A DNA stretch of 64,000 nt from Anaerolineae bacterium (GTDB lineage Bacteria; Chloroflexota; Anaerolineae; VGOG01), in the NCBI GenBank assembly GCA_034431315.1, contig DAOUDK010000034.1:28053-92052 (forward strand), given 5' to 3'. The notes beneath the pieces were generated by a model. That model was not told the DNA's origin, did not search any database, and was given only the letters and a program-made list of their open reading frames with translations. This document shows positions 1,358 through 21,393 of the stretch, piece after piece (the first letter of the stretch is position 1; every line of letters starts with the position of its first letter). A program made the position numbers and the translations under genes.

Positions 1358-1978
1358 TCAGTCCTCTGCTATTGTAGCCCATCTCTTGAAAATAGCTGTT
1401 ATTGTCTCCCAACAGAGTCCAGCGTCGTCTATCGTAACTTGAATTTTCTCTTTGAAGACCGGATTAGATTGAATCGTGTGCAGAAAAGTATCCATGTACT
1501 TGGTCATCGCGAGTGCCATAAGCACATTGGCTAAATCATCTCGGTCCATCACTTTCACACGATCAGACACAGAATCTCTGGGAAGAGATTCTTTTTCCGC
1601 CAGGTAGAATACACCAGAGACGTAGTTGTACTGGCTCATCAATTCCTGATAAACCCGCAAATCATTTACGTACTCTACCACCGTGCCCATACCGGCGTGG
1701 CGGATGCCCCCAGGATCTAAGAACTGAATTCCCCAGAAGTGGTGACCAACGAGCGTGTCTTCTCCCACAACTTCGTAACCTTGTAGAAAGAGGGCCACAG
1801 GAAACAAAGCAGTGAGATCATCGGTGGATAGTCCAGCTATGCCCATTGCCAGGCACTGCTTGATCTGCCGGAGGTCTTCTACCAAACGTGAAGATGTCAG
1901 AAAAGGCTCTGTGTTTTCTGTCAGGCTCTGTTTCACCAAGCTATGAACTATATGTATGCCATTGCTGAGATCAACCAT
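1358..1978 (-). CDS. hypothetical protein (low-GC, no recognisable motif)
   Basis: Roughly 206-aa ORF in a distinctly AT-richer block (about 1290..2010), immediately downstream of the NACHT gene on the same strand; start assigned to the internal ATG (MVDLSNG...) because the listed first codon is TTG. Confidence 0.45.
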   Translation of the reverse strand: MVDLSNGIHIVHSLVKQSLTENTEPFLTSSRLVEDLRQIKQCLAMGIAGLSTDDLTALFPVALFLQGYEVVGEDTLVGHHFWGIQFLDPGGIRHAGMGTVVEYVNDLRVYQELMSQYNYVSGVFYLAEKESLPRDSVSDRVKVMDRDDLANVLMALAMTKYMDTFLHTIQSNPVFKEKIQVTIDDAGLCWETITAIFKRWATIAED

Positions 1979-2016: not shown

Positions 2017-4896
2017 TCATCGCACCAATACGCAGCGGAACCCAGTAGCACCGTGCCTTTGATTGCAAGGAAGTGCCTGGCGCATGATACACATGATCCG
2101 CCACCTTGTTAGAGCGTTGAAAGATCCGCCCCTGACCGCCCGGTCTTGGGGTGCTTGGGAATACTGCTCGCCGTAGCGCTTGAATTGGTCAGACGTCCAT
2201 TCCATCACATTCCCGGCCATATCCATCACTCTGAAAGGACTGGCTCCGGCAGGGTAGATACCCACAGGGGTTGTAGTGTACAAGTCGATGTTGGCACGGT
2301 CCTCTTCCCATGTCATACCCCAAGGCCACCAACGCCCGTCGCCACCCCGGGCAGCCCATTCCCATTCCGCCTCCGTTGGTAGGCGATAGAGGTGTTCCTG
2401 ACCAGTCTTTTCGGTCATATAGGCCGAGCGCCAATGGCAAAAGGCTTCTGCCTCGTACCAACTCACCCCCAAGACAGGATGGTTGGGCTTTCGAATGCCT
2501 AGCTCGTCGTGGTCCCAGTACGAGGGTTTTGGATCGGCTCCCCATCGCCACCGCCAGCCCTCCTCTGACCAGTATACTTCGTTGCTATATCCTCCGGCGT
2601 CCATAAACTGTTTGTACTGCCAGTTAGTCACGGGATAGCGATCTATCGTGAAAGCAATAACCCGCACTTTCTGTTGAGGGGTGGCGAGGGCCAGCATTCG
2701 CCGCAGATCGGGCCTATCACCAGCTTGGTGAATAATAGCCTCCGCCGCTGCTTCAGAAAGTCCCATCACCGACTCCCCTGCTGAGATTTCTAGCATCTCC
2801 CCAAGTCGAGGATCCCCAACTTCACCCAGGACATCTCCCGCATCCCTTCTAATCTCAAAGCTTTCCTCAGAGGCACTGATGACGGCTATTAGGCCAGCAA
2901 GTACTTCATCTCTGACCTTAACTCTGACTGCACCACGACCGGCATCCCCGAGACATTCTCCGATGAGAATGAAGTAAGATCCCTTCTCCCTCGTTGGGCT
3001 GCCTTCTGCCGTCTTCAACATCGCGGTGAGCAAACCTTCCAACCGCGCGCCTCGCAAGAGGCCAGCCGTGAGTCGGATGCTCTCTCTCCAGCGGAGGTCG
3101 CCCATATGTTTACAGACTAATTCACTGGTGTTCGGCTGGTTGCACATATACTCAGCCGCCAGGAATTCCTCGAAGGTTTGATGGGGAAAACTGTATTCTC
3201 CACTTCCTCGCTCGACAAGCAGCCCCGTTTGCTCAGACACAATCTCGATAAAAGCGCGGGCTTGTTCCTGAGCTCTAATTCTGCTCAGGCCCTCGTGCTC
3301 TTGCAACCAGTCGGCAACGTGCTCCTCCAATTCGGAGCGGGGAATAGTGCTCCCAGGCTCCTGTTCGTGCATCCATAGAGCAATAGGCCCCAGGACGCCG
3401 CTAACGTAGTACCTATCGAACTGGAGTTCTTCGGGCGTTACTGGGCGGTCAGCCATGCTCCGTGCCCAATCCCAGGTCTCAACCAAGGCCTTCACGCACT
3501 CGCTGTATAGTTCGGCCCGATGGTGCGGTAAGTGAGCGCCGCGATAGTAATAGAGTAAGACCATGATAGCCAAGAGCAAAGGGGTTCTGGCCAAGTCAAA
3601 GACGCCGGGATTGCGAAAGATGGTCTTGAGCAAATCATCTGCCGACCCTGCTTCCCTGCCGAAGCCGTAGTTATGAAAGACTTCAAACCAGCGTTCCACA
3701 AAGGTACGAATCTCGTGCTTGGTGAAAGGGGCTATGGAGATAACAGCAAAATCCTTCTCCAGGGGAGCCTGGCGATAGCTGGCCGGACGGCTGGTTACGA
3801 TGAAGCGGTTCTTCGGATAGCGGACGACGAAATCACGGATGTGCTCTACAACCCCCCATCGCTCTCCAGTGGAGATGATCTCATCCAGGCCATCCAGCAA
3901 CACCAGACAGTTGCCTCGCTCCAGCTCATAATCAAAAAGTGGCTTCAATCCCCCTTGCCCACGTCCCCTGAAATACACAGGCAGATAGTCGGCCAGAGAG
4001 ATGTCTGGGTCGTCGCGTAGAGCCCTGGCGTAGGCAGAGACGGGAAATGGCAAAGGAAACCATATTCTGTCTGTAGCGAGCTCAATCCCTAACATATTTG
4101 TTACCGCCGTTGGGCCTCCAGCTAGGGCCAGGGCAATGTACCTCAACAGGGTTGTTTTTCCTGTACCAGGGTCGCCGAGCACGGCGACTTGCTTCTTGCC
4201 TAGGAGTAATTTCCTGAAATCCAGGGGCTCCGTCTGCCCTCGCTCTGCTGCCTCGAGTGGCTCCGGGGCGGGCAGGACAGACTCACTCTCGTATCTGATC
4301 CGCAAAGGGACAAAGAGCTTCGACAAAGGCAAGGAAACGAACTCTTTGAGAAACAAGAGACCCTGGAAGTCCATCTGTCCTTCGCGCTGGACGAGGTAAT
4401 TGAAGTAATATTCCCGTAGCTTATCCCGCTTGTGCCGTTCGGCCGCAGCTGTCTCGGCAAGAAATTCAAATGGGCCAGCAATGCAGCTCCAGAAATCGCC
4501 GGCCGTCATTCCCATCTTGGCTGCTATATCCGGCGGGACAAAGAACACGTATGAACAACCGAAGCGACGAAGAACATCCCGTTCCTGGTTCAAGCGGGCG
4601 ATGGCCAAGTCTCTTTCCTCGGGAGACAACCTGCTCCAACCCTCAACGAACAGAATGCCCGGACGTTCAGTCTCAAATGGTTCCTGCCACAAGTACGTAG
4701 CTACGCTGGGTTGGATACCGTCAATAGGCCAACTCTTGATCTCGAGTTCCTCCCGCAAGTCTGCAAAGAGATTGGCAATGATGGTATTCTCTAGCTCCCA
4801 GTCATCTACGATCACCACGATCAGGCTGCCTGCCTCTTCGTGGTGTCGCAATGTGTTGAGCAGCTTTTGGTATTCTTTATCAGCGACGAACGGCAT
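2017..4896 (-). CDS. NACHT-family STAND NTPase with unknown N-terminal alpha/beta domain, HEAT-like repeats and C-terminal FGE-sulfatase (formylglycine-generating-enzyme-like) domain
   Basis: 959 aa; Walker A GDPGTGKTTLL, Walker B LVLLDGLDEI typical of NACHT; central GDxLGEVGDPRL HEAT/PBS-like repeats; C-terminal region with YPVTNWQY...GVSWYEAEAFCHW...RLPTEAEWEWAARGG...GNVMEWT...RGGSF...GFRCV signature of the FGE-sulfatase (SUMF1) fold; start overlaps the stop of the upstream ATPase gene by 17 nt. Confidence 0.8.
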   Translation of the reverse strand: MPFVADKEYQKLLNTLRHHEEAGSLIVVIVDDWELENTIIANLFADLREELEIKSWPIDGIQPSVATYLWQEPFETERPGILFVEGWSRLSPEERDLAIARLNQERDVLRRFGCSYVFFVPPDIAAKMGMTAGDFWSCIAGPFEFLAETAAAERHKRDKLREYYFNYLVQREGQMDFQGLLFLKEFVSLPLSKLFVPLRIRYESESVLPAPEPLEAAERGQTEPLDFRKLLLGKKQVAVLGDPGTGKTTLLRYIALALAGGPTAVTNMLGIELATDRIWFPLPFPVSAYARALRDDPDISLADYLPVYFRGRGQGGLKPLFDYELERGNCLVLLDGLDEIISTGERWGVVEHIRDFVVRYPKNRFIVTSRPASYRQAPLEKDFAVISIAPFTKHEIRTFVERWFEVFHNYGFGREAGSADDLLKTIFRNPGVFDLARTPLLLAIMVLLYYYRGAHLPHHRAELYSECVKALVETWDWARSMADRPVTPEELQFDRYYVSGVLGPIALWMHEQEPGSTIPRSELEEHVADWLQEHEGLSRIRAQEQARAFIEIVSEQTGLLVERGSGEYSFPHQTFEEFLAAEYMCNQPNTSELVCKHMGDLRWRESIRLTAGLLRGARLEGLLTAMLKTAEGSPTREKGSYFILIGECLGDAGRGAVRVKVRDEVLAGLIAVISASEESFEIRRDAGDVLGEVGDPRLGEMLEISAGESVMGLSEAAAEAIIHQAGDRPDLRRMLALATPQQKVRVIAFTIDRYPVTNWQYKQFMDAGGYSNEVYWSEEGWRWRWGADPKPSYWDHDELGIRKPNHPVLGVSWYEAEAFCHWRSAYMTEKTGQEHLYRLPTEAEWEWAARGGDGRWWPWGMTWEEDRANIDLYTTTPVGIYPAGASPFRVMDMAGNVMEWTSDQFKRYGEQYSQAPQDRAVRGGSFNALTRWRIMCIMRQALPCNQRHGATGFRCVLVR

Positions 4897-6250
4897 CAGT
4901 CATGCGCTCCTCGGTCTCGACACCTTGCAATATCATGCGTACGATGGGGTGGAGGTCGTACCACACACCGTCGTTAACATAGCTCAAAATGTATAGGTTC
5001 AAGATAAGATTATCGCCAACCTCCGTACCTGAGCGCCGAGGGGACTCTAGGAATCTTTGCAGTTCCTCAAATTCGGTTCGCCCCAAAGGTCTGGAGTACT
5101 TGCGCTGTTCAGCATAAGCTGCTTTGCGCGCGGCCAGCAGATCAATCTGGCATTGGGATCTCACCTCAGCTTCGAGAATGGCGTCACGCATCAGAGCAAT
5201 AAGCTGTCGCATCACCCCACCACTCATCGCCACCAAAAGATCGAGCGCCTTAGGGGCAATCACATCTTCCGTCGCCATTCCCAAGCTTTGCAACCGCTTA
5301 TGCACAACCTGCTGCATGGTCTGCGAGCCCTTGTCATACCTGACATCCGGCTGGTCTTCCTCGTGGAGCTTGACGTTAGGAAACTCTATCGTGGGGAAAC
5401 GGCTCCGTACCTGGCTATAGTCAGGGTGATAGCAGAGTACAATGGGCGCAGTATAGATTGCTCGGCAGGGAGGAGTATGCAACACCCAGCTATCAGCGAA
5501 AAAGGCGCGCGCGTGAGCCAAATTGTCTACTTTGTCGAGACCATCCACGATTAGAAAAACCGGCTTACCCGCTTTGTCTTCCACATCGCGCACGATGGCC
5601 TGCACTCGCAAGATGACCTCTGAAAGCCTGGGACTCAGCTCCAACTTGCGCAGCATCTTGCCAGTAGCGCCAAGGGTGAACGGTGCGCCACTCGTCAGCC
5701 CATTGATCACCTTGCCAGCGGCAGTTGCTGCTACAGGCCCTCCTACCAACCCAATCCCAAAGCAGGCGATAGCGCCCAATATCTGGCTCACGTCTATTTC
5801 AAAGTCCTCCTTTTCTGTCTCTTCTCGGATCAGTGTAGTCAGACTCTTCTCTAGCTCATTACGCAATGCCTTATCTGGCTTGTTGGACAACCCAGCCTCT
5901 GCTATCTTACAAACTGCAAAGCCCATCATCGAGAGCACGTCAAGCTGGTTTAAGCTATGAATGTCCCCGCCTGCGCTAGTTTCCAAGTCCAGCCAGATCA
6001 CGAAGTATTGGTCCTGTATCAATTGAGCGAACTTGGCTAATTCCGAAGTCTTGCCACTGCCCCGGTGCCCAGTCAGCACAGTTTGGAGAGCGACCCGGTC
6101 AGGTCGCATTGCAAGCACTAGTTTCTCCAGGGGGCTGTCTTCCCGTTCCACAAAAAATGCTTCGAGATCATCTCCCCACAACGATTTCCACGGATCAAAG
6201 ACATTGTAAATCGGCGTCCAATATTGTCCGATGTTTTGTTGCTCTGCCAT
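4880..6250 (-). CDS. STAND-like P-loop ATPase (Walker A/B NTPase, no sensor repeats)
   Basis: Walker A GHRGSGKTSEL and Walker B FLIVDGLDKV; ATG at 6250 preceded by AAGGAGGAAG RBS (the ORF-track start at 6325 is probably too long); 3' end overlaps the NACHT gene start, consistent with translational coupling. Confidence 0.65.
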   Translation of the reverse strand: MAEQQNIGQYWTPIYNVFDPWKSLWGDDLEAFFVEREDSPLEKLVLAMRPDRVALQTVLTGHRGSGKTSELAKFAQLIQDQYFVIWLDLETSAGGDIHSLNQLDVLSMMGFAVCKIAEAGLSNKPDKALRNELEKSLTTLIREETEKEDFEIDVSQILGAIACFGIGLVGGPVAATAAGKVINGLTSGAPFTLGATGKMLRKLELSPRLSEVILRVQAIVRDVEDKAGKPVFLIVDGLDKVDNLAHARAFFADSWVLHTPPCRAIYTAPIVLCYHPDYSQVRSRFPTIEFPNVKLHEEDQPDVRYDKGSQTMQQVVHKRLQSLGMATEDVIAPKALDLLVAMSGGVMRQLIALMRDAILEAEVRSQCQIDLLAARKAAYAEQRKYSRPLGRTEFEELQRFLESPRRSGTEVGDNLILNLYILSYVNDGVWYDLHPIVRMILQGVETEERMTDAVRR

Positions 6251-6932: not shown

Positions 6933-7853
6933 TCAAGCCCAAGGACGGCCATACATCTTGATTCGCACTTCCCTAACGATCTCTTTGAGCTTTAGCTGAT
7001 AGTCCAGAGGCCCCTGCGGTACAATTATTCCAGTTGTGTAAAAATTTACCGGAATGGGCCTTTCCCGCTCGGCGTGGGTAAACAAAGCCTGATAGCCACT
7101 GTTGATGCTTCTGATTGATAGCAAAAACAGATCTTCTCTTTCTGCCGCCAAGTCACTGAAAACGGACATGAGCTGATTTGACCGCAGAAGCGCTCGCTGT
7201 TTCTGCGAGGGCAACCAGTCAGCTCCGAGAAGCGGCTCGACTCTTTGCCTGACAGAATCCCACACTTTTTCCTCCGGCAAGTCGCCCTTGACAATGTGGA
7301 TGTTCTCTGCAAATTGGCGCAGACGCTCCATCACCTCCAGGTAACGATTTTTCACCATTTGCAATGCTTGAGCGTTTTCAAAGAGCTCGTAGTGAAAGCC
7401 GCGACTGCTGGTGATACGCTTCATACAGGTTTCAACCGGCACGTCCAAAAAGATTGTCAGATCCGGGTGGATGCAGCGGTAGTTCAGTTGATATATCCAA
7501 CGCGTCTCAACATCAAGAGACTGATAAGCCAGCGACGACAGGTAGTAACGGTCGCAAACAACATGCCATCCGCTGGCCAGTCGGTGAGCGATGCCGTTGG
7601 TTCGACAGTAGAGGTGATCCAGCCGATCAGTGGCAAAGAGCAAGGCCAGTGTCTGGCGGTCAGCCTTCAGTCTTCCAGTGAGAATCGACCTGATTTGCGC
7701 ACCGGCTGGCCCCTGACTGGGCTCCTGGGTCAAATAGGCCACTCCTGTGGCTCTCGACAACCACGCCTGCAGCAATCGGGCTTGCGTGGTCGTGCCGGCG
7801 CCATCTAGACCCTCGATGACGATGAAACGCCCTGGCCCCTCGTTAAAGATCAT
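6933..7853 (-). CDS. thymidylate kinase-fold protein with P-loop Lys->Thr substitution and about 100-aa C-terminal extension
   Basis: 306 aa; IVIEGLDGAGTTTQ (canonical Tmk is GxDGAGKTT), CDRYYLSSLAYQ (DRY motif), REPSQGPAGAQIR (LID-like); GGGGAAGG RBS. Confidence 0.7.
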   Translation of the reverse strand: MIFNEGPGRFIVIEGLDGAGTTTQARLLQAWLSRATGVAYLTQEPSQGPAGAQIRSILTGRLKADRQTLALLFATDRLDHLYCRTNGIAHRLASGWHVVCDRYYLSSLAYQSLDVETRWIYQLNYRCIHPDLTIFLDVPVETCMKRITSSRGFHYELFENAQALQMVKNRYLEVMERLRQFAENIHIVKGDLPEEKVWDSVRQRVEPLLGADWLPSQKQRALLRSNQLMSVFSDLAAEREDLFLLSIRSINSGYQALFTHAERERPIPVNFYTTGIIVPQGPLDYQLKLKEIVREVRIKMYGRPWA

Positions 7854-7861
7854 GCCTTCCC

Positions 7862-8494
7862 CTACCTCATGAGGTCAGTCACATGCCTCTTGATGTCCCG
7901 TGCAATCGCTGCGGCAGGCCGGTTGCCCTTGATGATAACGATCTTTTCTCCCTCCACGCGCAGCGACTCTATGGTCATCAGGTAATTTTCCCGCACTTTT
8001 TTAAGTCTTTTACGTTCTTGTTCAAGTTTGTCAGCTATATACGAGTTGGTTTTGACTAGGGTCTCCAAGTAAGCGTTGATTGGCGTGTCTAGGAAAAGAG
8101 TCAGATCGGGCTGGCGACACTCGGCGTTGATCCAACGCAGCCACTTCGAGTCGGAATGAAGGGCCTGGTAGGCGAGAGAAGAGAGGTAGTAGCGCAGGCA
8201 AATCACGTGCTCTTCCAACACCAAGCGCGCGAGGATACCCCCGTTCTTGTTCAGATGGTCCATCCGGTCGGTGGCAAAGAAGAGCGCCAGGGTCACCTCG
8301 TCTACGTCCAGTCGCCCATCCAGGATGAAGCGAATCTGGGAGCCAAAGGGCCCGTCGCTGGGCTCGCGGGTGAGATGTACCTTTAGTCTTTCCTCCCGCA
8401 GCCATCCATATAGCCTCTCCCCTTGCTCCTCAAGTTCCTGGCTGTCAATACCTTCTAGCACGATAAACTTGCCTGGGGTAGGGGATTCTTGCAT
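7862..8494 (-). CDS. thymidylate kinase-fold protein with fully degenerate P-loop (pseudokinase-like)
   Basis: 210 aa; FIVLEGIDSQELEEQ replaces the P-loop; CLRYYLSSLAYQA retained; stop of upstream gene 3 nt before its ATG. Confidence 0.65.
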   Translation of the reverse strand: MQESPTPGKFIVLEGIDSQELEEQGERLYGWLREERLKVHLTREPSDGPFGSQIRFILDGRLDVDEVTLALFFATDRMDHLNKNGGILARLVLEEHVICLRYYLSSLAYQALHSDSKWLRWINAECRQPDLTLFLDTPINAYLETLVKTNSYIADKLEQERKRLKKVRENYLMTIESLRVEGEKIVIIKGNRPAAAIARDIKRHVTDLMR

Positions 8495-8497
8495 GCC

Positions 8498-9157
8498 TCA
8501 CTCCTCTGCTGATGACTCACTTGAGCGAAAAATGATCGGGGCAATGAGCTTTACAGTCTGCTGATGGGTTGATTCCATCGAGCCAGAACTATTCACAATT
8601 TGAATATCTTCCTTCCTCTCATCTCGCAATAGGGGAATAATCCGATTGAACTGCATGCTGACCCTCCTGAGTATCTCTGGCCGTTCATATCGCTCTGGTT
8701 CGAACTTTCGCCGGATGCGTTCCATACATACCTCAGGCGGAGATTGCAAAAAGATGGTTAGATCAGGCCGCCAGTTGCGGGCGTTGAGTTGCCACAGCCA
8801 ATCCCAGCCATCTGGCAACAAATGAGACTGGTAAGCCAGGAAGGAAAGATAGTACCTATCACAAATCACATGAATGCCAGCCTCCAGCCTGGGTAGTATA
8901 AAGCGATCCAGGTGGTCTGCCCGATCGGCTGCGAAGAGAAGAGCGAGCGCTTCCTCGCCGATATTCAGTCTGCCCTGCAGGGCATGTCGTATCTCGGTCC
9001 CGGCAGGGCCCTGGCTAGGCTCGGCAGTGAAAGCAACGCGATGCATATCACAGCCACTTCGCCTCAGCCACTCGCGTAGCATCTCAACCTGTTCCGTCAG
9101 GCCAGAACCATCCAGCCCGTCGAAGGTGATGAATTTACCTCTCGATATATCTGCCAT
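8498..9157 (-). CDS. thymidylate kinase-fold protein with P-loop Lys->Leu substitution
   Basis: FITFDGLDGSGLTEQ (K replaced by L), CDRYYLSFLAYQS; start placed at the ATG (MADISRGKF...) 12 nt inside the listed GTG start at 9169; either start is possible. Confidence 0.6.
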   Translation of the reverse strand: MADISRGKFITFDGLDGSGLTEQVEMLREWLRRSGCDMHRVAFTAEPSQGPAGTEIRHALQGRLNIGEEALALLFAADRADHLDRFILPRLEAGIHVICDRYYLSFLAYQSHLLPDGWDWLWQLNARNWRPDLTIFLQSPPEVCMERIRRKFEPERYERPEILRRVSMQFNRIIPLLRDERKEDIQIVNSSGSMESTHQQTVKLIAPIIFRSSESSAEE

Positions 9158-9296
9158 ACTCTCGCTCACCCTGTGGCCATTGGCGTTGCTTCATCCGCAC
9201 CGGCAAAGTATCCTCCATGTAGAACCCTATCAACCGTGCTGCTGCGGCAGGCCGCACGGAAAAGTTCACCATCCCATATCTACTCGGGACGCTACC

Positions 9297-9325
9297 ATTA
9301 TACAACATTATCCCCAAATTGCCAA
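9297..9325 (-). promoter_or_regulatory. sigma70-like promoter candidate for the tmk-like/dcd/STAND cluster
   Basis: On minus strand: TTGGCA - 17 nt - TATAAT, about 130 nt upstream of the first tmk-like start. Confidence 0.4.
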
Positions 9326-9449
9326 ACACCAATATGAAAATCTCATTCAGATAGACACGGAAACGGAGTGAAAGGCGGAAGGCCGGATAAGCGCCTGACA
9401 CCGAAAGCGTCCTCTGCGTCGAACGGGGGCAGATGGATGACACCGGCTT

Positions 9450-9478
9450 TGTACAATCTGATGGAAATGGAGTATAAT
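9450..9478 (+). promoter_or_regulatory. sigma70-like promoter candidate for ATP-cone/uridine-kinase-like gene
   Basis: TGTACA - 17 nt - TATAAT, about 60 nt upstream of ATG 9538 which has a GGGAGAGAGGGA RBS. Confidence 0.4.
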
Positions 9479-9537
9479 TGTGGCTACATTCCCGAAAGCT
9501 GAAGCGGTGATGCCAGAGTGGGAGAGAGGGATACGAT

Positions 9538-10896
9538 ATGGCGAAGATTAAACAAGTAGTCAAGCGAACAGGGGCTGTGGTGCCCTTTAAGAAAGAGCGC
9601 ATCACCAACGCTATCTATCGAGCAGCGGTGGCCGTGGGCGGCCGCGACCGGTCCGTCGCAGAGCGGCTGGCCGACCAGGTCGTGGCTATGCTGGAGGAGA
9701 TCACGCCGCCAGGCCACATCCCCACCGTCGAGGAGATCCAGGACATCGCCGAGAAGGTGTTGATTGAGAACGGCCACGCCAGAACAGCCAAGGCCTTCAT
9801 CCTATACCGCGACGAACGGGCCCGTCGGCGGCGGGAGCGGGCCGAGCGCTCAGCCCATCCCTCCAAGAATATCCCCTGGCACAAGCTCTGGGAGGTGCTC
9901 AACTGGGCCGTTGATCACGACCTCCACACCGTCGAGCGCCTGAACGAGCGCATCGCCCAGGGCGAGTTCCCGGAGATCGTACGGGAAACCGATCGGGCCT
10001 ACAACGAGGACATCACCACCGCGTCGGAGGTGATCGGTGAGCGCCGGGACAGCGTAAAGATTGTCATCATCGCCGGGCCCTCCTCCTCTGGCAAGACTAC
10101 CACGACCATCAAGCTCAGCCATCTGCTGACGAAGATGGGCCTCAGCCTGGTCCCGCTCACTGTTGACAACTACTACCTCGACCTGGAACTCCATCCCAAA
10201 GACGAGTACGGAGATTACGACTTTGAGACGCCCCAGGCTCTCGATCTGGAACTCATTAACGAGCACCTGGCACGCCTGATCGCCGGGGAGGAGGTGTGGA
10301 TTCCGCTCTACGACTTCAAAACCGGCAAGCGGCACGACGCCCAGGCTCCCATGCGGGTCGGGCCCGACGACGTTATCCTCATTGATAGCCTGCACGGCTT
10401 GTTCGCCGACATGACGCGGAGCGTGGACGATGAATTGAAGTTCAAGCTGTACATCGAACCGTTGCTGCAAATGAAGGGGCCTGATGGGAAATTCGTTCGC
10501 TGGACAGACCTGCGGTTGATGCGCCGCATGGTCCGCGACGCCACTCACCGCGCCTACAAACCACAGCAGACGCTGGAACACTGGCATTACGTTCGCAGCA
10601 GCGAGATGCGCCACATCATCCCCTACGTCAACACGACCGACTACATCGTCAACAGCGGCCTGCCGTACGAACTCCCTGTCATGCGGGCCAGGATGTTCGG
10701 CCATTTCGAGGAGTGGGTGGAACAGTACAGGGACGATCCGCTGCGCGAAGATGCTTCCACGCGCGCCGAGCGCGTGTATCATCTTCTGAAGTCCGTCACC
10801 CCGGTCGAGGACGATGGCCGGCCTACGGGCGGCTCGGCCATACCGCCCGACTCGCTCCTGCGGGAGTTCATCGGCGGCAGTTGCTACGAGTATTGA
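9538..10896 (+). CDS. ATP-cone domain fused to uridine kinase/phosphoribulokinase-family P-loop kinase
   Basis: N-terminal approx. 90 aa match ATP-cone (KVVKRTGAVVPFKKERITNAI...); central IIAGPSSSGKTTT Walker A and LIDSLHGLF of the Udk/PRK family; stop overlaps start of next gene (TGATG). Confidence 0.7.
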   Translation: MAKIKQVVKRTGAVVPFKKERITNAIYRAAVAVGGRDRSVAERLADQVVAMLEEITPPGHIPTVEEIQDIAEKVLIENGHARTAKAFILYRDERARRRRERAERSAHPSKNIPWHKLWEVLNWAVDHDLHTVERLNERIAQGEFPEIVRETDRAYNEDITTASEVIGERRDSVKIVIIAGPSSSGKTTTTIKLSHLLTKMGLSLVPLTVDNYYLDLELHPKDEYGDYDFETPQALDLELINEHLARLIAGEEVWIPLYDFKTGKRHDAQAPMRVGPDDVILIDSLHGLFADMTRSVDDELKFKLYIEPLLQMKGPDGKFVRWTDLRLMRRMVRDATHRAYKPQQTLEHWHYVRSSEMRHIIPYVNTTDYIVNSGLPYELPVMRARMFGHFEEWVEQYRDDPLREDASTRAERVYHLLKSVTPVEDDGRPTGGSAIPPDSLLREFIGGSCYEY

Positions 10897-11723
10897 TGAC
10901 ATTTTTAGAGAACACCCACGTCGAAATCATCAACCCCCACGTCCCGCGCGGCCGCATCCGCCACGCCCTGTTCGATTTCGACGGCACGGTGTCGCTCATC
11001 CGCGAGGGCTGGCAGGGGGTGATGATCCCTATGATGGTCGAGGTGCTGTTGCAGACGCCCAAGCACGAAGGCGAAGCCGAATTGCGCACTCTCGTCACCG
11101 AGTTCGTGGACCAGTTGACGGGCAAGCAAACCATCTATCAGATGATCCAGCTTTGCGAGGAGGTGCGGCAGCGTGGGGGGGAGCCGCTGGATCCCCTGGA
11201 GTACAAATGGATGTACCTGGATCGGCTATGGGAGCGCATCGAGGGGCGCGTGGCCGGGCTGAAGAGCGGCCAAATCGAGCCGGAAGAGATGATGGTGCCC
11301 GGAGCGGTGCCGATGCTGGAGGCCCTGCGTGCTCGTGGCGTTTCTTGCTATTTGGCTTCAGGTACTGACGAGGTCTACGTGCTGGATGAGGCGGCGGCCC
11401 TGGGACTGTCGTCCTACTTTGCCAGCATCTACGGCGCGCTGGACGATTACCAGAATTACTCCAAGAGGATGGTCATTGAGCGCATCCTCGCCGAGAACCG
11501 TATGAGCGGCCCCGAACTTGTGACCTTTGGCGATGGCTATGTGGAGATCGAGGACACCAGGGCCGTGGGCGGCATTGCCGTGGGGGTCGCTTCCGACGAG
11601 GTCAACCGCCAGGGGATCAACGAATGGAAGCGGAGGCGGCTGATCGAGGCTGGGGCCGACCTCATCATCCCCGACTTTCGTCAGCACGAGTGCTTGATGA
11701 CCTATCTGTTTGGGTCTGGCTAA
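10896..11723 (+). CDS. HAD-superfamily hydrolase (phosphatase)
   Basis: FDFDGTV motif I (DxDGT) about 25 aa from N-terminus, C-terminal GDG..D motif; ATG overlapping upstream stop by 1 nt. Confidence 0.65.
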   Translation: MTFLENTHVEIINPHVPRGRIRHALFDFDGTVSLIREGWQGVMIPMMVEVLLQTPKHEGEAELRTLVTEFVDQLTGKQTIYQMIQLCEEVRQRGGEPLDPLEYKWMYLDRLWERIEGRVAGLKSGQIEPEEMMVPGAVPMLEALRARGVSCYLASGTDEVYVLDEAAALGLSSYFASIYGALDDYQNYSKRMVIERILAENRMSGPELVTFGDGYVEIEDTRAVGGIAVGVASDEVNRQGINEWKRRRLIEAGADLIIPDFRQHECLMTYLFGSG

Positions 11724-11824
11724 AATCTGTGGAAGGTAGTAGCGACTTCAGTCGCTTGGAACGACTAAAGTCGTCACTACCACAAGTTTAAGCCACACCC
11801 TATCTGTTTGCGGAGGATTGACCA

Positions 11825-12781
11825 ATGCTCTACCCCCTTTTCGACCGGAGCAAGCTGAAACTCAGATCTTTGTCGGAGCGAGTGCACGACATGGCTTTGG
11901 CCGAGGTCTTGAACCTGGACGACGATGTTCTACCCTTTGACGACCCCGGCCTGGATCAAGTGGCCGAGCGCGTGACGCAAGCGCATCAGGCCGGAGCTCA
12001 GGTGATCATGATGATGGGCGCGCACGTCATCAAGCGCGGCCTGTCGCGTTTCGTCGTTGACCTGATGGAGCGGGGCATCATCACCCATGTCGGCATGAAC
12101 GGCGCCGGGCCCATCCACGATTTCGAGCTGGCCCTCATCGGCGCGACCACCGAGAGCGTGGCCCGCTACATCCAGGAAGGGCAGTTCGGGCTGTGGGAGG
12201 AGACCGGCCGCCTCAATGAGGCCATCCGGCAGGGGGCGTGCGATGGCCTGGGGCTGGGCGAGGCGGTCGGGCGGATGATCGAGGAGGAGCGATTCCCCCA
12301 TCGCGACGCGAGCATCCTGGCGGCGGGCTACCGGCTGCGGGTGCCGGTGACGGCGCACGTGGGCATCGGCTACGACATCATCCACGAGCACCCCAACTGC
12401 GACGGGGCGGCCCTGGGCGAGACCTCCTACCGCGATTTCCTGGCCCTGGCCCACAGCGTCTCCAATTTGCAAAACGGGGTGCTCCTGAACTTCGGCACGG
12501 CGGTGATGGGGCCGGAGGTCTTCCTCAAGGCCCTGGCCATGTCTCGCAACGTGGCTCACCAGGAGGGGCGGCGCATCAACTGCTTCACCACCGCCGTCTT
12601 CGACCTCGTGCACCTCGGCTCCTATCACCGCGAAGCGTCCAGGGCTGATGCGCGTTACTACTTCCGGCCCTACAAGACCCTCCTGGTGCGCACCGTCCAG
12701 GACGGCGGCGAGAGTTTCTACATCCAGGGCGACCACCGAGCCACGCTGCCGAACCTGTATCGCCTCGTTACCGAGAGATGA
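11825..12781 (+). CDS. hypothetical protein (possibly deoxyhypusine-synthase-like fold; uncertain)
   Basis: 318-aa ORF with protein-like composition; 4-nt ATGA overlap with downstream PfkB gene suggests an operon. Confidence 0.4.
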   Translation: MLYPLFDRSKLKLRSLSERVHDMALAEVLNLDDDVLPFDDPGLDQVAERVTQAHQAGAQVIMMMGAHVIKRGLSRFVVDLMERGIITHVGMNGAGPIHDFELALIGATTESVARYIQEGQFGLWEETGRLNEAIRQGACDGLGLGEAVGRMIEEERFPHRDASILAAGYRLRVPVTAHVGIGYDIIHEHPNCDGAALGETSYRDFLALAHSVSNLQNGVLLNFGTAVMGPEVFLKALAMSRNVAHQEGRRINCFTTAVFDLVHLGSYHREASRADARYYFRPYKTLLVRTVQDGGESFYIQGDHRATLPNLYRLVTER

Positions 12782-13848
12782 TGGACGAGAGACGCCTCGA
12801 CGAATTGCTGAACCGATTCCCTCACCTCCACGTGCTGGTGGTGGGCGACTTTTTTCTGGACAAGTACTTGATCATTGACCGGCGGCTGAGCGAGGTCTCG
12901 CTGGAGACGGGCCTGGAGGCCTATCAGGTCGTGGAGGTGCGATGCAGCCCCGGCGCGGCCGGGACCATCACCTCCAACCTGCGGGCACTGGGAGTCCAGG
13001 TCGCGGCGCTAGGCGTCATCGGCGACGACGGCGGGGGCTACGAGCTGAGGCGGGGCCTGGCGGAGAGGGGGGTGGACATCGAGTCGCTCATCCAGCGGGC
13101 CGACCTCTTCACGCCGACGTACACCAAGCCGATGGTGCGGGAACCCGACGGCCGGGAGCACGAGATCCAACGGCTCGACATAAAGAACCGTGCACCATTG
13201 CCGACGGAAGTGGAGGAGGAGGTCATCGCCCATCTGCGGGCCCTGGCGCCCAAAGTAGACGCGGTGGTCGTCGCCGACCAGGCGCAGGAGCGCAACTGCG
13301 GCGTGATCACCGACCGGGTGCGGGAGGAGATTGGGCGACTGGCGCTCCGCCATCCGGGCAAAGTCTTCGCCGCCGACTCCCGCGAGCACATCGGGATCTT
13401 CCGGCACGTTATCGTCAAGCCCAACCGACAGGAGGCAACCCTGGCCGTGCGACCGGATTGGAAAGGCGAGTTCACCCTGGAGGCGGCCAGGGAGTGTGGC
13501 GCGGAGCTCTTCCGCCGCAACCAGAAGCCGGTCTTCCTCACTGCTGGAGATCATGGCATCCTCCTGTTCACTGAAAAGGGATGCCAGCACATTCCGGCCG
13601 TGCCGGTAGAGGGCGAGATAGACATCGTCGGGGCGGGGGACAGCGTGATGGCCGGCATCGTGTCGGCCCTGTGCAGCGGAGCCGAGCCTGAGGAAGCGGC
13701 CTTGCTGGGCAACGTCGTCGCCTCCGTCACCATCCAGCAGATAGGCGCCACAGGTACGGCCTCGCCGGCGCAGGTGAGGGAACGATTTAGAACACGGATT
13801 CGCAGGATTGGCGGATTTCTACTCAGTCCGAGCTGTTTGATCCGTTAA
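12778..13848 (+). CDS. PfkB-family carbohydrate kinase (RfaE/HldE kinase-domain-like)
   Basis: VLVVGDFFLDKYL N-terminus and DIVGAGDSVMAG PfkB signature 2. Confidence 0.7.
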   Translation: MMDERRLDELLNRFPHLHVLVVGDFFLDKYLIIDRRLSEVSLETGLEAYQVVEVRCSPGAAGTITSNLRALGVQVAALGVIGDDGGGYELRRGLAERGVDIESLIQRADLFTPTYTKPMVREPDGREHEIQRLDIKNRAPLPTEVEEEVIAHLRALAPKVDAVVVADQAQERNCGVITDRVREEIGRLALRHPGKVFAADSREHIGIFRHVIVKPNRQEATLAVRPDWKGEFTLEAARECGAELFRRNQKPVFLTAGDHGILLFTEKGCQHIPAVPVEGEIDIVGAGDSVMAGIVSALCSGAEPEEAALLGNVVASVTIQQIGATGTASPAQVRERFRTRIRRIGGFLLSPSCLIR

Positions 13849-15994: not shown

Positions 15995-18900
15995 TGATGT
16001 CCAATAATGAAGCTGGCTCGCCCGGAGCTGGAAGCTCCGGGCTGAGAGAACAAAGCCCCCTTCGGGGGCTAAATTGCAGCCCGAAGGGCTTTGTTCTTTC
16101 AGCGTCGAGCTTTAGCTCGGCGCTCAACTCCGTTCTCCTGGGCCTCGGCCTGGGGCTGTATCTGAGCCGGATCATCGCTGAGGCGACGACGATAATCTGG
16201 CCCTGGCTGGCTTCGCTGGCTTTGATCATCGTGTGCAGCGTTATCGGAGTCGGGCTGGCTGCTCTTGGGAACCGCCACGGCTTGACGCTCACCCCCTTGG
16301 CGACGCTATACGCCTACGTCTTGTATCCTCGCATTGAGCCTATCCTCGCCTGGTCTGTGGCCTTCGTGGCCGTGACCGCCCTGGTCATCGCCAACGTCCC
16401 GCAGGCGTGGGAGCCTGCCCTGCTACAAAACCGTAAGGGCAAGCGATCCTTCCCTGTGGACTCCATCGTATTCGTCCTGGGCCTCGGCCTGTATGTGCGC
16501 ACTCTGGCCCCCACTGTTCTTCCGTCGAATAGTGGCGAGTTCCAGTTCGTGGCCGACATTCTGGGCATCGCCCACCCGCCTGGGTATCCGCTTTACACCA
16601 TGCTGGGCAAGCTTTTCACCTTGATCCCCGTCGGCGACGTAGCCTACAGGGTCAACCTGATGTCAGCCTTTTTCGCTGCCTTGACCCTGGCCCTGGTGAG
16701 CCGGACGGTGCGGCGTGCTACCGACTCGGCTTGGGGGGGCGTGGTGGGCGCTTTAGCTCTGGGCACGTCCACCACCTTTTGGGCGCAGGCCACAACTGCC
16801 AACACCCGAAGCTTGACGGCTTTTTTCACCGCCCTCATGCTGTTCGCCCTCGTCAGTTATGCTAAGGTAACCATCCAGCGAAGCTCCACCTCAAACCGAC
16901 AAGTAATGGGACGCAGATACACGCAGATTTCCGCAGATAAAAGGGAAAGTCAGCGTGCATCTGCGTTAATCTGCGTCCAGAATAGGGAAGTTTACCTCAT
17001 TTTGTTCGCTCTAGCTTTTGGGCTAGGGATCACCCACCACGGCTCCTTGGTCTTCCTGATTCTCCCCTTCGTAGCTTTTCTATTAGTGACCAAACTCGAA
17101 ACTCGAAACGGCTCGACTGAGCTCGCCGAAGTCTCGAAACTCGAAACTTCATCGTTTACCGGGCCTCGTCCTCTTCTGAAGCCTCTCCTCGCTTTCCTCC
17201 TCTCGCTGAGCGTGCTCCTCTATCTTCCCATCAGAGGAATCCTGGGTGCTCCCTTTGGTCCGTCCAACATCGCTACGCCGACCGGGTTCTTGAACCACGT
17301 CCTGGCCCGTGGCTTCCGGGGCGATATGTTCTACTTTGCCAGCTCCGGCCTCCTGCTTGAGCGATTCGCCGTGCTGACTAACATCCTGGATTTCCAGTTC
17401 AGCCTGGGTTTGCTCATTGCTGCCGCTTTGGGGGCTCTGATCATGCTGGGCAAAGACCGGCGGCTTTTGCTCCTCTGCGGTGGGGCCATAGCTGTTCAAG
17501 CCGTTATCGCTATTACCTATCGCGCCCCGGAGACAGTGGAGTATTTGATACCTGCCTATGTGCCCCTGGCCATCATCATTGGCTACGGCGCGGCGACGTT
17601 GGGCCGCTGGAGCAGGTTCAGAGCTCTTAATGCCTGTCTGGTGTCCCTCGTCATGTTGCTCGGTGCTATACAGTTAGTTAATCATTATCCCAGCTTCGCC
17701 TGGCTGAGCGAGGACCGCTCGACGCGCCAGTATGCAGAAAGTGTGCTGTCCGACGCCCCCCCTGAGACGCTGGTCTTGGCTAACTGGCACTGGGCCACCC
17801 CGCTGTGGTATCTGCAATACAGCGAAGGTGTGCGCCCCGACGTGGAAGTGAGGTACGTTTATCCGGAGGGCGCGGAACCGATCTCCGCTACCTGGCTGCG
17901 GCGTGTAGAGGAGAACGTGGGGGAGCGCCCCCTGATCGTCACCAATTATTATCAGGAGTTCGGCGTCACGCCGTATCGCTTCACTCCCGTGGGCGAGGCT
18001 TTTGCCGTATTCACTTCCAAGCTGGTGCAAAGCGAGCCAGCCCCCCTAACTTTGGGGGGGAAGCCTGGCGACGTCGCCAGACTTGACGCGACTTTCGAGG
18101 GCAAGATCAGGCTCTTGGGCTATCGTTTGCCGGAAGACAGGGTCCCCTCAGGTCAACCTCTGTACTTGGACCTTTACTGGCAGCCCATGGTCGAGCTGGA
18201 TGGCAACTACTCCTTTTTCGTCCACCTGGTGGGCGATGGCGGGCGAGTTCTGGGACAGATGGACATCGCTCACGATATGGCTGGCTTCAAAACAGGGGGG
18301 GGCTCTGTTGATCGCTACGAGATACAGGTGCTGCCCACGACTCCAGCGGGCTCTTACCAGCTCATCGCCGGCGTGTACATCACTCTCCCCGAAGGGGGCT
18401 GGCAACGCCTGACGACCGAGGAGGGCGGTGAGACCGTGCTCCTGGCCGAAGTGGAGGTAGTGTCACCTGCCCTGCCACCTGTCACCCTACACCCTCTACA
18501 TCAGCCCTTCGCCAGCGGGTTAACCCTGATCGGAGTTGATTACGACACTAGCCTGGAGGGCAGCCGGCGGGTCTATCTCCACTGGCATCGCTTCAGGGTT
18601 GACGACGGAGACTACGATGTGCTTTTGTATGCTAACGACGATGTGGTAGCCGGGAGCCGCCTGCCACAAGTGCCCCTGGGCACCTATCTCACCACGGCCC
18701 ACGACTTGCCGCTGCGTCCTGAGCTTGTCGAAGGACATTTGCAAGTGGAGCTGCGTTCGACCGACAATGTAGTAAGCCGGTGGCTGGGGCCTTGGCATTG
18801 GCCTGGGGGAGGCCGTTTGACCCTGCCGCCCCCGCCTCCGCGAAGCCGTTACGTGGACTTGGGAGGGGAGATGCTGCTGGCGGGTGTTGAATACCAGAGG

Positions 18901-19367: not shown

Positions 19368-19814
19368 ATGAGCGAAGAAGTACCTCTTGAGCCGAAGGTC
19401 AATCCCAGTCCGACCTGGAAGGTGAACACCAAGGCGCGGCTAAGTGCCTGTGATAATCGCCCTGGCCTGAAGAAGATTTACGTCAGGATCTTAGACGACA
19501 AGGGCGAGCCCCTGGGTGGGATCAAAGTGCGCTTCGATGTCGAGCCCTCCCAGGGCACGGCTTACGATCACCCGAACGTCTGGGGGCTGACTGGCGAGGA
19601 CGGGTACCTGGAGTGGAACCACCTCGGCGTGCCCACCCGCTACATGCTCTGGATGGAGGATGATGAGACTCCCCTCGTCGAGAACATCCGAACCGACCTG
19701 GGGTACGAGTACTGTCGTCCTTCGGGCGCGACACATGGCGGCTGGAGGCCTGTGAACAAGCCGGGTGTCTACTCCTATCGGATCGAAGTCCAGAGGAAGG
19801 GAGAGGGCGACTAG
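19368..19814 (+). CDS. hypothetical protein, stand-alone copy of the C-terminal domain of the 20355 gene
   Basis: 148 aa; aligns almost residue-for-residue with the C-terminal 140 aa of the 251-aa protein at 20355..21110 (PNPTWKVNTK.RLSACDNRPGLKKIYV...YSYRIE.QRKGEG); AAAGGAG RBS. Confidence 0.7.
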   Translation: MSEEVPLEPKVNPSPTWKVNTKARLSACDNRPGLKKIYVRILDDKGEPLGGIKVRFDVEPSQGTAYDHPNVWGLTGEDGYLEWNHLGVPTRYMLWMEDDETPLVENIRTDLGYEYCRPSGATHGGWRPVNKPGVYSYRIEVQRKGEGD

Positions 19815-20070
19815 GGTCTAGCCTGTCGTTCCGACTCCTTGCACATTGCTCTGAAAAGTAAGCGTTCATTGAGGATGGCCAACGGGGGCCATGAAGATTA
19901 GCCTGCAAATGGATGCTTGGCTAGGTGGAGCTAAGAGCATAACCGGCCGTTGACGTGATGTCTGCAAACGGTCGGTTTTTGTATTTTTGGGGGAGGTGTC
20001 ACGCCAGAGGAGGGCTAGCCCGCGGGAGGAAAACGTTAACTGAATCTTAACCTTACCGTCTTTTTTGCCC

Positions 20071-20099
20071 TTGACAAAGGAGGAAAAATCTGGTATAAT
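20071..20099 (+). promoter_or_regulatory. consensus sigma70 promoter
   Basis: Perfect TTGACA - 17 nt - TATAAT. Confidence 0.6.
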
Positions 20100-20127
20100 G
20101 TAATTGGATAAGTAAAAGTATCGTTGC

Positions 20128-20245
20128 AATTGCATAAGGTCCGAGAAAGGTAAACCCATCGAAAGGTGGGGGCGCAAAGCCACAGGTCTACGTTAGCAGA
20201 TAGCAAATCGCTATCAGTTAATATGACAGCCGGGTTGCCGAAGAC
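20128..20245 (+). ncRNA. c-di-GMP-I (GEMM) riboswitch candidate
   Basis: GGUAAACC-CAUC-GAAA-GGUGGGGG-CGCAAAGCC ... AGCCGGGUUGCCGAAG, matching the hallmark GEMM-I elements (AAACC, GNRA-capped P2, ACGCAAAGCC, and 3' GCGGGGUUACCG-like strand); located in a 255-nt leader between a consensus promoter and the CDS. Confidence 0.6.
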
Positions 20246-20256
20246 AGATATCAAGG

Positions 20257-20298
20257 AGCGTGCTGTTTGGAAGCAGGTCGGCCGATAGCACGCTTTTT
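20257..20298 (+). terminator. intrinsic terminator / attenuator hairpin in the riboswitch leader
   Basis: GCGTGCT...AGCACGC 7-bp stem followed by TTTTT, about 55 nt upstream of the ATG. Confidence 0.5.
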
Positions 20299-20354
20299 GG
20301 TTGAGCTTGACGAATGTAGTAACACAAAAAAATCCACAAAGGAGGTAAGAACCA

Positions 20355-21110: not shown

Positions 21111-21393
21111 GGCTTAGTCTGCGATTTCGCCCTGACGATCTCAAGCTTTAGGCCTCGAGGGCCTCAGGCCAAAGGCCCGAAGGATTTCGATCCTTGGCAC
21201 ATTGCTCTGAAAAACTGAATGGAGGGATTTGACCGGCTAGGTATTCATTGCCCTTCCCCAGCGGCAGTTGAGACCTGATCTTGCCAGGTAACAAGTATTG
21301 CGCTGGCAGTCTTCAGATGCTGGCGCGATGATCTACGAAACGGCGGCGTCCGTATAGATGCCCGCCGTTTTTCGTTTCCGTCACTTGCGGGTT

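Follow-up and report, generated by a model that had tools for sequence, protein, structure and literature searches.

Related systems and the locus

Thymidylate kinase (Tmk; EC 2.7.4.9; PF02223, TIGR00041) belongs to the P-loop kinases, in which the Walker A lysine is regarded as essential. Our analysis of a 64,000-nt stretch of DNA from an Anaerolineae bacterium (the window) revealed a minus-strand gene cassette that begins with three tandem Tmk-fold paralogs, TmkC, TmkB and TmkA, all of which lack this lysine, and continues with genes for a Dcd/dUTPase-fold protein, a P-loop ATPase, a STAND protein with a NACHT domain and a conserved 206-aa protein, x206. The trio shares with canonical Tmk the fold and the thymine-pocket residues and passes the family cut-offs, and TmkA and TmkC also have the DR(Y) motif and an Arg-bearing lid. 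Unlike canonical Tmk, TmkA and TmkC have lost the arginine of the TREP motif in addition to the lysine, and TmkB has no glycine loop, DRY aspartate or lid arginine. Moreover, TmkA carries an extra domain of ~100 aa, the three genes are co-translated here, and lysine-less copies lie beside a lysine-bearing Tmk in related genomes.

Among described systems, the closest match for paralogous Tmk subunits is PPK3 of Sulfolobus, a catalytic/regulatory heterotetramer of two Tmk paralogs, cPPK3 and rPPK3 (PMC12995831). These are encoded by adjacent genes, are annotated as dTMP kinases and coexist with a true Tmk, and the inactive regulatory subunit acts via oligomerisation; the P-loop nucleotide-phosphate site is retained, the dTMP site is lost, and the genes lie in ppx/CHAD/SixA operons (PMC12995831). 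The trio likewise consists of adjacent Tmk paralogs labelled dTMP kinase, and the degenerate TmkB beside TmkA and TmkC resembles the cPPK3/rPPK3 arrangement (PMC12995831), so membership in PPK3, with catalytic and regulatory polyphosphate kinase subunits, was considered. However, the conservation pattern is the inverse: PPK3 retains the residues that bind ATP/ADP but not those that bind dTMP, whereas the trio has lost the P-loop lysine and kept the dTMP site. Similarity was also lower to the solved cPPK3 homolog 2plr than to canonical Tmks (46-62 versus 73-81 bits; TM-score 0.75 versus 0.85-0.88), and the cassette contains no PPX, CHAD, SixA or Pst genes; its neighbours are the Dcd-like and STAND genes. 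We therefore rejected this assignment, which we regard as very improbable.

For a kinase-like module together with a deoxycytidine deaminase, the nearest functional parallel is provided by the defensive dCTP deaminases (DcdV/AvcD; Tal et al.), in which a P-loop kinase-like module of unknown role and a deaminase are both required and a dNTP is depleted (10.1101/2021.04.26.441389, 10.1101/2021.03.31.437871). The cassette similarly pairs a kinase-fold module with a putative deoxycytidine-nucleotide deaminase (Dcd-like by similarity), and a related locus, L121 (related loci are designated by L numbers), adds a dGTPase. The defensive dCTP deaminases are single polypeptides with a zinc-dependent deaminase of the cytidine deaminase (CDA) fold, whereas the cassette has separate genes, a dUTPase/Dcd trimer-type fold, three Tmk-fold paralogs and STAND NTPases.

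The NTPase conflict systems described from multicellular bacteria include inactive enzymes and FGS domains, and that description mentions no Tmk-like or Dcd-like partners (PMC7159879). The cassette resembles STAND/NACHT conflict systems (bNACHT, Avs; PMC7159879) in its NACHT protein with a C-terminal FGS domain, its accessory P-loop ATPase, its host phylum of the filamentous/multicellular type, the putatively silent enzyme paralogs in the locus and its allelic hypervariability. In contrast to those systems, no vWA-MoxR, TPR or EAD architecture was recognised in the cassette, and the window contains no template/variable repeat pair by which a diversity-generating retroelement would target the FGE domain.

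Kinase folds have been reused as binding modules elsewhere, as in the guanylate-kinase domain of MAGUK proteins, the APS-kinase-like allosteric domain of fungal ATP sulfurylase and the PSB loop of sulfotransferases, which has threonine at the Walker-lysine position. The trio would resemble these in having kept a P-loop kinase fold, lost phosphotransfer and reused the pocket for sensing or binding. However, the families differ, and several catalytic residues have decayed in those modules, whereas TmkA and TmkC have lost the lysine only.

Three Tmk paralogs without the Walker A lysine

The coordinates (positions within the window) and motif states of the trio are as follows.

8498..9169, minus strand: TmkC, 223 aa from a GTG; P-loop GLDGSGLTEQ (K to L), DRY intact, TAEPS, DRYYLSF
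7862..8494, minus strand: TmkB, 210 aa; P-loop GIDSQELEEQ, DRY changed to LRY, lid Arg lost, TREPS and thymine pocket retained
6933..7853, minus strand: TmkA, whole open reading frame (ORF), 306 aa
7236..7853, minus strand: TmkA Tmk domain; P-loop GLDGAGTTTQ (K to T), DRY intact, lid RITSSRGFHYELFE, TQEPS
6933..7235, minus strand: TmkA C-terminal extension, ~100 aa (residues ~207-306); an alpha+beta domain, confidently modelled, family unassigned

An earlier note on this DNA had described three tandem Tmk-fold paralogs at 6933-9169, all without the Walker A lysine, and had read their P-loops as GLDGAGTTTQ, GIDSQELEEQ and GLDGSGLTEQ. Both readings were borne out by the ORFs, by the family matches and by ungapped alignments. 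The Pfam model Thymidylate_kin matched all three paralogs (E 3e-39, 7e-28 and 1e-42), and the NCBIfam equivalog TIGR00041, 'dTMP kinase', gave 135, 111 and 144 bits against a cut-off of 83 bits; annotation pipelines will therefore call all three dTMP kinase. A phmmer alignment with the Thermus thermophilus Tmk ran without a gap through EGLDGSGKTTQ and placed threonine (TmkA) or leucine (TmkB and TmkC) in the lysine column. The ungapped alignments of all three proteins also ruled out a lysine supplied from a shifted P-loop register, as no alternative register yields one. The lysine is intact in other P-loop proteins of the window (GHRGSGKTS, GDPGTGKTT, GPSSSGKTT and GAIGVGKTT).

The retention of the Tmk fold, also claimed in that note, was confirmed by the profile matches and by an AlphaFold2 model of TmkA (pLDDT 92), which superposed on the human, Plasmodium and Thermus Tmks with TM-scores of 0.85-0.88. 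The extra C-terminal domain of ~100 aa reported for one copy belongs to TmkA. The thymine/deoxyribose pocket (Phe, D-R..H, the Arg of DRY and SS..YQ) is retained in all three copies. Two motif statements held only in part: the DRY/AYQ region keeps SS..YQ throughout and DRY in TmkA and TmkC, but the DRY aspartate is absent from TmkB (CLRYYLSSLAYQ; LRY), and the REP region keeps EPS throughout, but its arginine only in TmkB (TREPS), being replaced by glutamine in TmkA (TQEPS) and alanine in TmkC (TAEPS). The lids of TmkA (RITSSRGFHYE) and TmkC (RIRRKFEPERYE) both bear arginine and that of TmkB (LETLVKTNSY) does not. In TmkB the glycines are gone, and the leucine in the lysine column sits inside the destroyed loop.

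The genes are ordered TmkC-TmkB-TmkA on the minus strand with gaps of 3 nt and 8 nt. The true start of TmkC is probably the ATG at 9157, giving 219 aa as in database entry P0215. The entry for the TmkA product, P0001, comprises 266 aa from Met41, so the deposited annotation loses the P-loop region; judged from its homologs, the 306-aa protein is the real form.

All three paralogs are under purifying selection, with dN/dS of 0.11-0.24 (0.18-0.24 for TmkB), the same as in the adjoining genes. Since the canonical catalytic residue is missing from all three, they might have been functionless tandem tmk duplicates in decay. This idea is refuted by the dN/dS values and by deep conservation, in which paralog-specific motifs are kept down to ~46% identity and hundreds of lysine-less homologs occur across many phyla, and we give it practically no credence. 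The trio thus consists of selected, functional members of a large lysine-less branch of Tmk.

No canonical tmk was found elsewhere within the 64-kb window. Its sole other Tmk-superfamily match, a weak one, is a plus-strand gene at 43350-44059, the C-terminal part of which looks, by motif inspection only, like a dNK-type deoxynucleoside kinase with a normal GVGKTT P-loop.

Extent of the lysine-less family and conservation of its catalytic residues

Searches with TmkA, TmkB and TmkC returned thousands of relatives, labelled "dTMP kinase" all round, and at least 580 species gave hits when one genome per species was scanned. The clade is marked by EP[ST] instead of EPGG and by DRYYLSSxAYQ. Among 303 collected sequences, 234 had an intact glycine loop without the lysine, 35 had the lysine and 34 were degenerate in the manner of TmkB; the 150 nearest 50%-identity cluster representatives comprised 112 lysine-less, 32 lysine-bearing and 6 degenerate proteins. 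The lysine was missing from all 94 hits listed in the TmkB search and from 106 of the 108 TmkC hits, and more than 100 TmkA homologs read EGLDGAG[T/S/A]TTQ. At the lysine site of the 234 sequences we found threonine (155), leucine (23), isoleucine (16), serine (13), glutamine (8), valine (7), cysteine (6), alanine (5) and glycine (1). Family-wide, the replacements were uncharged with one exception, an arginine; glutamate, asparagine, methionine and aspartate were never seen, although each of the first three is one nucleotide change from a lysine codon.

The bacterial holders belong to the Chloroflexota, Peptococcaceae and other Bacillota, Acidobacteriota, Gemmatimonadota, Myxococcota, Latescibacterota and Patescibacteria, and the archaeal holders to the Altiarchaeales, Methanofastidiosia and Aenigmatarchaeota; one cultured species, Thermanaerosceptrum fracticalcis, is among them. 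Seven of 24 related loci on predicted viral contigs were lysine-less. Lysine-less P-loops fall in a large clade mostly devoid of the residue, but lysine-bearing members are nested within lysine-less groups. In the conserved context TrpE ... membrane protein-Tmk-phosphatase ... AspS, for example, the Tmk has lysine in L044, L055, L066 and L075 and threonine in L029, L030, L037 and L051, the rest of the protein being conserved. Lysine and threonine are thus interchangeable among syntenic orthologs, and the lysine is therefore dispensable for the function of the clade.

Across the 234 intact-loop sequences without the lysine, the other catalytic residues and those of the pocket are strongly conserved: the P-loop aspartate (100%) and two threonines (91% and 95%), the DRY aspartate (97%) and arginine (100%), the first lid arginine (100%), and the D-R (100%) and SS..YQ (97-100%) of the thymine pocket. 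The phosphate-binding arginine of TREP is unconstrained (K 26%, R 25%, Q 13%, H 11%). In B-type proteins the glycines are gone, as are the aspartate of DRY and the arginine of the lid, whereas the TREP arginine (76%), D-R (100%), the arginine of xRY (88%) and SS..YQ are kept. A basic lid residue, usually histidine, otherwise arginine, two positions before [ED]-L-F-E occurred in 249 of 440 non-redundant lysine-less sequences (57%) and in 7 of 68 lysine-bearing ones (10%), counts that are uncorrected for phylogeny; TmkA carries it as H154 in RGFHYELFE (lid residues 146-159).

The absence of the lysine and the loss of the donor site in TmkB make canonical ATP:dTMP phosphotransfer unlikely for the trio and essentially exclude it for TmkB. 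To this extent the loss of phosphotransfer suggested in the earlier note stands; as a general loss it is less secure, given the 91-100% conservation of the other catalytic residues in intact-loop relatives. TmkB looks like a true pseudoenzyme that is still able to hold a thymidine nucleotide. On their motifs, TmkA and TmkC resemble either nucleotide binders with two high-affinity sites or enzymes that bypass the lysine.

Neither the conservation of catalytic residues nor the lid covariation is predicted by a pure 'sponge', so that non-canonical catalysis is possible. TmkA, TmkC and the clade generally would then act as (deoxy)nucleotide phosphotransferases or hydrolases of a non-canonical kind; the lid His/Arg or else a second metal would stand in for the lysine, and the donor or substrate may differ (for example dUMP or a modified dNMP), with TmkB as an inactive regulatory partner as in cPPK3/rPPK3. 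An active plus an inactive Tmk paralog has precedent (PMC12995831), and the occurrence of lysine-less members in reduced genomes and on viral contigs points the same way as the near-invariant P-loop, DRY and lid residues and H154 of TmkA. However, the residue that replaces the lysine is chemically unconstrained, as is that at the TREP arginine, and threonine alternates with lysine between syntenic orthologs. The Walker A lysine is generally regarded as essential in P-loop kinases; a canonical Tmk lies next door in L001, L009 and probably L028; and the lid count ignores phylogeny. We consider this enzymatic explanation doubtful, although it is the main rival of the reading that we favour.

Recurrence and exchange of the cassette

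The remaining parts of the cassette are as follows.

9297..9325, minus strand: promoter upstream of TmkC, TTGGCA-17-TATAAT, sigma-70-like, 11/12 consensus match; predicted from the consensus match only
9158..9296, minus strand: 5' leader of the cassette, ~140 nt; most columns identical in L007, L087 and L089
6335..6850, minus strand: non-canonical Dcd/dUTPase-fold protein, 171 aa; Pfam DCD E 2e-14
4880..6250, minus strand: P-loop ATPase, 456 aa from M26 of a 481-aa ORF; weak AAA_16/KAP/Sll1717-like similarity, GHRGSGKTS intact
2017..4896, minus strand: STAND protein; unannotated N-terminal domain, NACHT (Pfam E 4e-11) and C-terminal FGE-sulfatase of the C-type-lectin fold (Pfam E 4e-44)
1361..1978, minus strand: x206, 206 aa, last gene of the cluster; conserved, no family match

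The gene order TmkC-TmkB-TmkA-Dcd-like-KAP/AAA_16 ATPase(s)-NACHT/FGE-x206 was found in at least four divergent lineages; the close relatives L007, L087, L088, L089 and L090 share it at 66-99% identity. The three P-loop states are repeated in orthologous cassettes at 69-89% identity (L007, L087 and L089) and at ~46-52% (L116, L120 and L123). In the last three, which are deeply divergent (TmkA ~46% and NACHT ~37% identical), the order is kept at 37-53% identity, the ATPase occurs as two or three paralogs, the Tmk genes overlap one another, and TmkA overlaps or abuts the Dcd-like gene. They also have an extra gene between the ATPase paralogs and NACHT (L116 6466-6927, L120 7235-7708 and L123 5790-6311); its product, of 153-173 aa, weakly resembles the N-terminal domain of the NACHT-FGE protein encoded at that locus (pairwise E 3e-4) and, on this similarity, could be a homotypic adaptor domain. 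The C-type subfamily (GSG[L/I]TEQ and LSF) is conserved at 50-87% identity and was seen only in such cassettes with Dcd-like/STAND genes (8 of 8 loci).

The cassette is flanked by two genes on the plus strand. A divergently transcribed gene at 9538-10896, which also adjoins the cassette in L007 and L116, encodes an N-terminal ATP-cone fused to a uridine-kinase/PRK-like P-loop kinase. The ATP-cone is known from ribonucleotide reductases and NrdR, and the fusion is an unusual pairing of an allosteric domain with a salvage kinase. At the other end lies an adenosine deaminase gene (28-1026), which adjoins x206 in L117 and L119 as well.

Comparison of the window with L116 revealed low synonymous divergence (dS) at the flanks (0.54 for the first 45 codons of the ATP-cone/uridine-kinase-like gene and 0.36 for x206, which is 77% identical), whereas the six interior genes were synonymously saturated (pS 0.74-0.83) and their proteins only 40-53% identical. 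Upstream of its own divergent TmkC, L116 contains a 265-nt remnant (451-715) that is 77% identical to window positions 9326-9068; it spans the window-type promoter, the leader and the first ~30 TmkC codons and has a frame-breaking indel. This remnant looks like a recombination scar of cassette replacement. The closer relatives are mosaic, as in L007, with dS of 0.016 for Dcd and 0.79 for TmkB. The block from TmkC to NACHT/FGE, with its one or more ATPase genes, thus occupies a fixed chromosomal site and is both passed on and swapped as a whole. The finding of two strongly diverged alleles and a recombination scar at a single locus is typical of immunity loci, and the exchange of the entire block is an argument for joint movement of the Tmk/Dcd and STAND halves.

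The G+C content over the cassette (0.52-0.55) is lower than in most of the window, and no terminator-like site was found in its intergenic gaps. The promoter sequence is conserved in L007, L087 and L089 (a remnant persists in L116). The leader is near-invariant, although coding dS reaches 0.09-0.65 in TmkC and up to 1.3 elsewhere in the cassette. A search of Rfam returned no match to the leader, which has too few variable positions for covariation or structure analysis. It could be a cis-regulatory RNA or a small RNA (sRNA); the avcD deaminase is under the control of an upstream sRNA.

The Dcd-like protein scored 75.5 bits with TIGR02274, below the 92.8-bit cut-off of the dCTP deaminase equivalog. 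Its closest solved chains are 9ln0 and 8y1w (both 'dCTP deaminase', E 1e-22); nothing relevant to these PDB entries was found in the literature. At what we take to be the site of the catalytic glutamate (the TLE motif of Escherichia coli Dcd), the sequence is LFFTV in the window protein and LTLML in the closest solved chain. If that position is right, the protein and its 9ln0/8y1w relatives appear to lack an E. coli-type catalytic glutamate, and their reaction is uncertain.

Orthologs of the ATPase begin at about residue 22, and the window ATPase overlaps the NACHT gene by 17 nt. The Walker A motif of the NACHT protein is intact (GDPGTGKTT), and the NACHT/FGE gene occupies the same cassette position in L087, L089, L090, L116 and L123. 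No match to x206 was found in Pfam, NCBIfam, PADLOC, PHROG or PDB; distant homologs follow Tmk-Dcd in L121 (two copies, 8077-9477) and L023 (1982-2578). A metagenome probe with x206 yielded only three near-identical contigs (L117-L119), in which an insertion sequence (IS) has replaced the upstream part, and is uninformative on linkage. An IS-type transposase has there cut off the N-terminus of the ATPase including its P-loop (e.g., L118 3732-5195), with no Tmk or Dcd gene upstream.

A candidate role in phage conflict

The reading that we favour, with something less than even confidence, is that the trio forms a thymidine-nucleotide-binding complex without ordinary ATP:dTMP phosphotransfer, which works with the Dcd-like enzyme in a STAND-coupled system that senses or depletes pyrimidine deoxynucleotides during phage conflict. 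Tmks are dimers and PPK3 is a heteromer of Tmk paralogs (PMC12995831); the three co-produced paralogs would likewise be joined in a hetero-oligomer. The ligand of this complex would be a deoxynucleotide of the thymidine type (dTMP, dUMP or a modified analogue), and a second nucleotide would probably be held in the neutralised P-loop of TmkA and TmkC. The paralogs would then serve as ligand-binding regulatory or sensor subunits, not as ATP:dTMP phosphotransferases, and could control or scaffold the Dcd-like enzyme and hence the branch of the dNTP pool leading from dCTP/dUTP to dTTP. In this Anaerolineae lineage, the nucleotide module may have been wired to the KAP-like ATPase and the NACHT-FGE STAND sensor, the whole constituting a conflict system, probably antiviral, that reads or depletes pyrimidine deoxynucleotides on infection. 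The block-wise allelic replacement and the low G+C content both bear on an immune role of the cassette.

An immune role might also be of the guard-and-decoy kind. By analogy with plant NLRs such as ZAR1, which monitor pseudokinase decoys, the lysine-less trio and the Dcd-like protein would be silent mimics of those host enzymes of the thymidylate pathway that phages target by binding, by inhibition or by supplying modified nucleotides; the readout would pass through the KAP-like ATPase and the NACHT-FGE protein, and the allelic replacement would reflect an arms race. We consider this variant improbable.

Several observations weigh against the nucleotide-sensing reading that we favour. Among 46 species loci with a lysine-less Tmk, a Dcd-like neighbour occurred in 4 and a NACHT gene in none, a count to be read with the L007 contig in mind, as this 87% relative of the window ends inside the ATPase gene, before the expected NACHT/FGE position. 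The constant Dcd/STAND neighbourhood, put up for checking in the earlier note, therefore holds for the C-type loci but not family-wide; as most homologs lack a STAND or Dcd-like neighbour, the core function of the family is not defence. The nucleoside-salvage genes that flank the cassette make a housekeeping role in dNTP homeostasis equally natural. A working kinase would be expected in the small-genome lineages (Patescibacteria, DPANN archaea and Dehalococcoidia) and on the predicted viral contigs that have lysine-less members, and the conserved catalytic residues and enriched lid His/Arg fit an enzyme better than a passive binder. A search of PADLOC-DB v2.0 yielded no system match, only weak Tmk-like hits (PDC-M51B and VakA) and, for the NACHT protein, hits confined to the P-loop; it gave nothing for the Dcd-like protein, the ATPase or x206, and no match to a dCTP-deaminase model. 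Our literature search found nothing relevant on lysine-less Tmk paralogs, this cassette or PDC-M51/VakA. Finally, heteromer formation, the identity of the ligand and any effect on the Dcd-like enzyme are inferred.

Family context outside the cassette

The neighbours of lysine-less homologs vary. In Chloroflexia they include histidine-ammonia-lyase and a Crp-type regulator; in other Anaerolineae, a ycf45-like ATPase and a canonical lysine-bearing Tmk adjoin lysine-less copies, and elsewhere various housekeeping genes were found. The usual context of canonical tmk is tmk-holB, and lysine-less members of the Peptococcaceae were found outside that context. Pairs of the B-A type recur in L001, L009 and L121, the order in L001 and L009 being B-A-Tmk(K). 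In L001 (Anaerolineaceae; 9357-13199), a B-like Tmk, a lysine-less A-like Tmk and a lysine-bearing Tmk are followed by a 454-aa TIR-domain protein. L028 has, beside its lysine-less copies, a partial ORF that has the canonical DRFADST motif but does not cover the P-loop.

A Dcd-like gene lies directly downstream of a lysine-less Tmk in 12 loci from Anaerolineae and Dehalococcoidia (L007, L087-L090, L116, L120, L121, L123 and, from Dehalococcoidia, L023, L028 and L033). L121 (6716-10428) contains B'-A, a tandem Dcd-Dcd fusion (457 aa), two x206-like genes and a dGTP triphosphohydrolase, with no STAND genes; L023 has Tmk-Dcd-x206-like. This recurrence across Chloroflexota points to a core of one or more lysine-less Tmks plus a Dcd-like protein, often with x206, and to dNTP-pool enzymes as the common theme. 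In one Anaerolineae lineage the C paralog and the ATPase/NACHT pair have been added.

These loci bring in a further explanation, namely that the trio, the Dcd-like protein and x206 constitute a housekeeping dNTP-homeostasis module of Chloroflexota, and that an unrelated immune insert, made up of the ATPase and NACHT-FGE genes, is carried along by recombination. Tmk-Dcd(-x206) stands without STAND genes in L121, L023, L028 and L033, where the neighbours are DNA polymerase III alpha, dGTPase, the ycf45-like ATPase and the partial Tmk ORF of L028; the salvage genes on both flanks fit the same theme, and L117-L119 keep ATPase-NACHT-x206 after the IS insertion without an upstream Tmk. However, the C-type paralog occurs only with ATPase/NACHT genes, in four divergent lineages; the genes stay in order at 37-53% identity; allelic replacement takes in the entire six-gene block and not the STAND half alone; and the intergenic gaps contain no terminator-like site. 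We regard such a composite origin as unlikely, but not as far-fetched.

Significance and other features of the window

Curated models give the name "dTMP kinase" to hundreds of proteins, spread over many phyla of bacteria and archaea, in which the defining residue of P-loop kinase chemistry is missing. Metabolic reconstructions that take this label at face value may be wrong for Chloroflexota, Peptococcaceae, candidate-phyla bacteria and DPANN archaea. The clade represents either a new lysine-free phosphoryl transfer or a large case of a nucleotide kinase turned nucleotide sensor, and would be informative either way. The combination of Tmk-fold, Dcd-fold, NACHT and KAP-like NTPase genes in the cassette is absent from current defence-system catalogues; were the proposed sensing role true, it would extend nucleotide-pool defence (dCTP deaminase and dGTPase) to a STAND-gated multi-subunit form.

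The window also contains several repeats. Two copies of a 56-nt element (17093-17148 and 33111-33166), 95% identical and 16 kb apart, have internal AACTCGAAAC repeats, and the element is possibly a small repeated intergenic element. A tandem duplication of ~1.3 kb with 80-83% identity spans 19389-21121. A repeat of ~145 nt occurs six-fold at 24948-25717 and is typical of beta-propeller-type repeats, and a long Thr/Pro-rich coding repeat array lies at 48791-49748.

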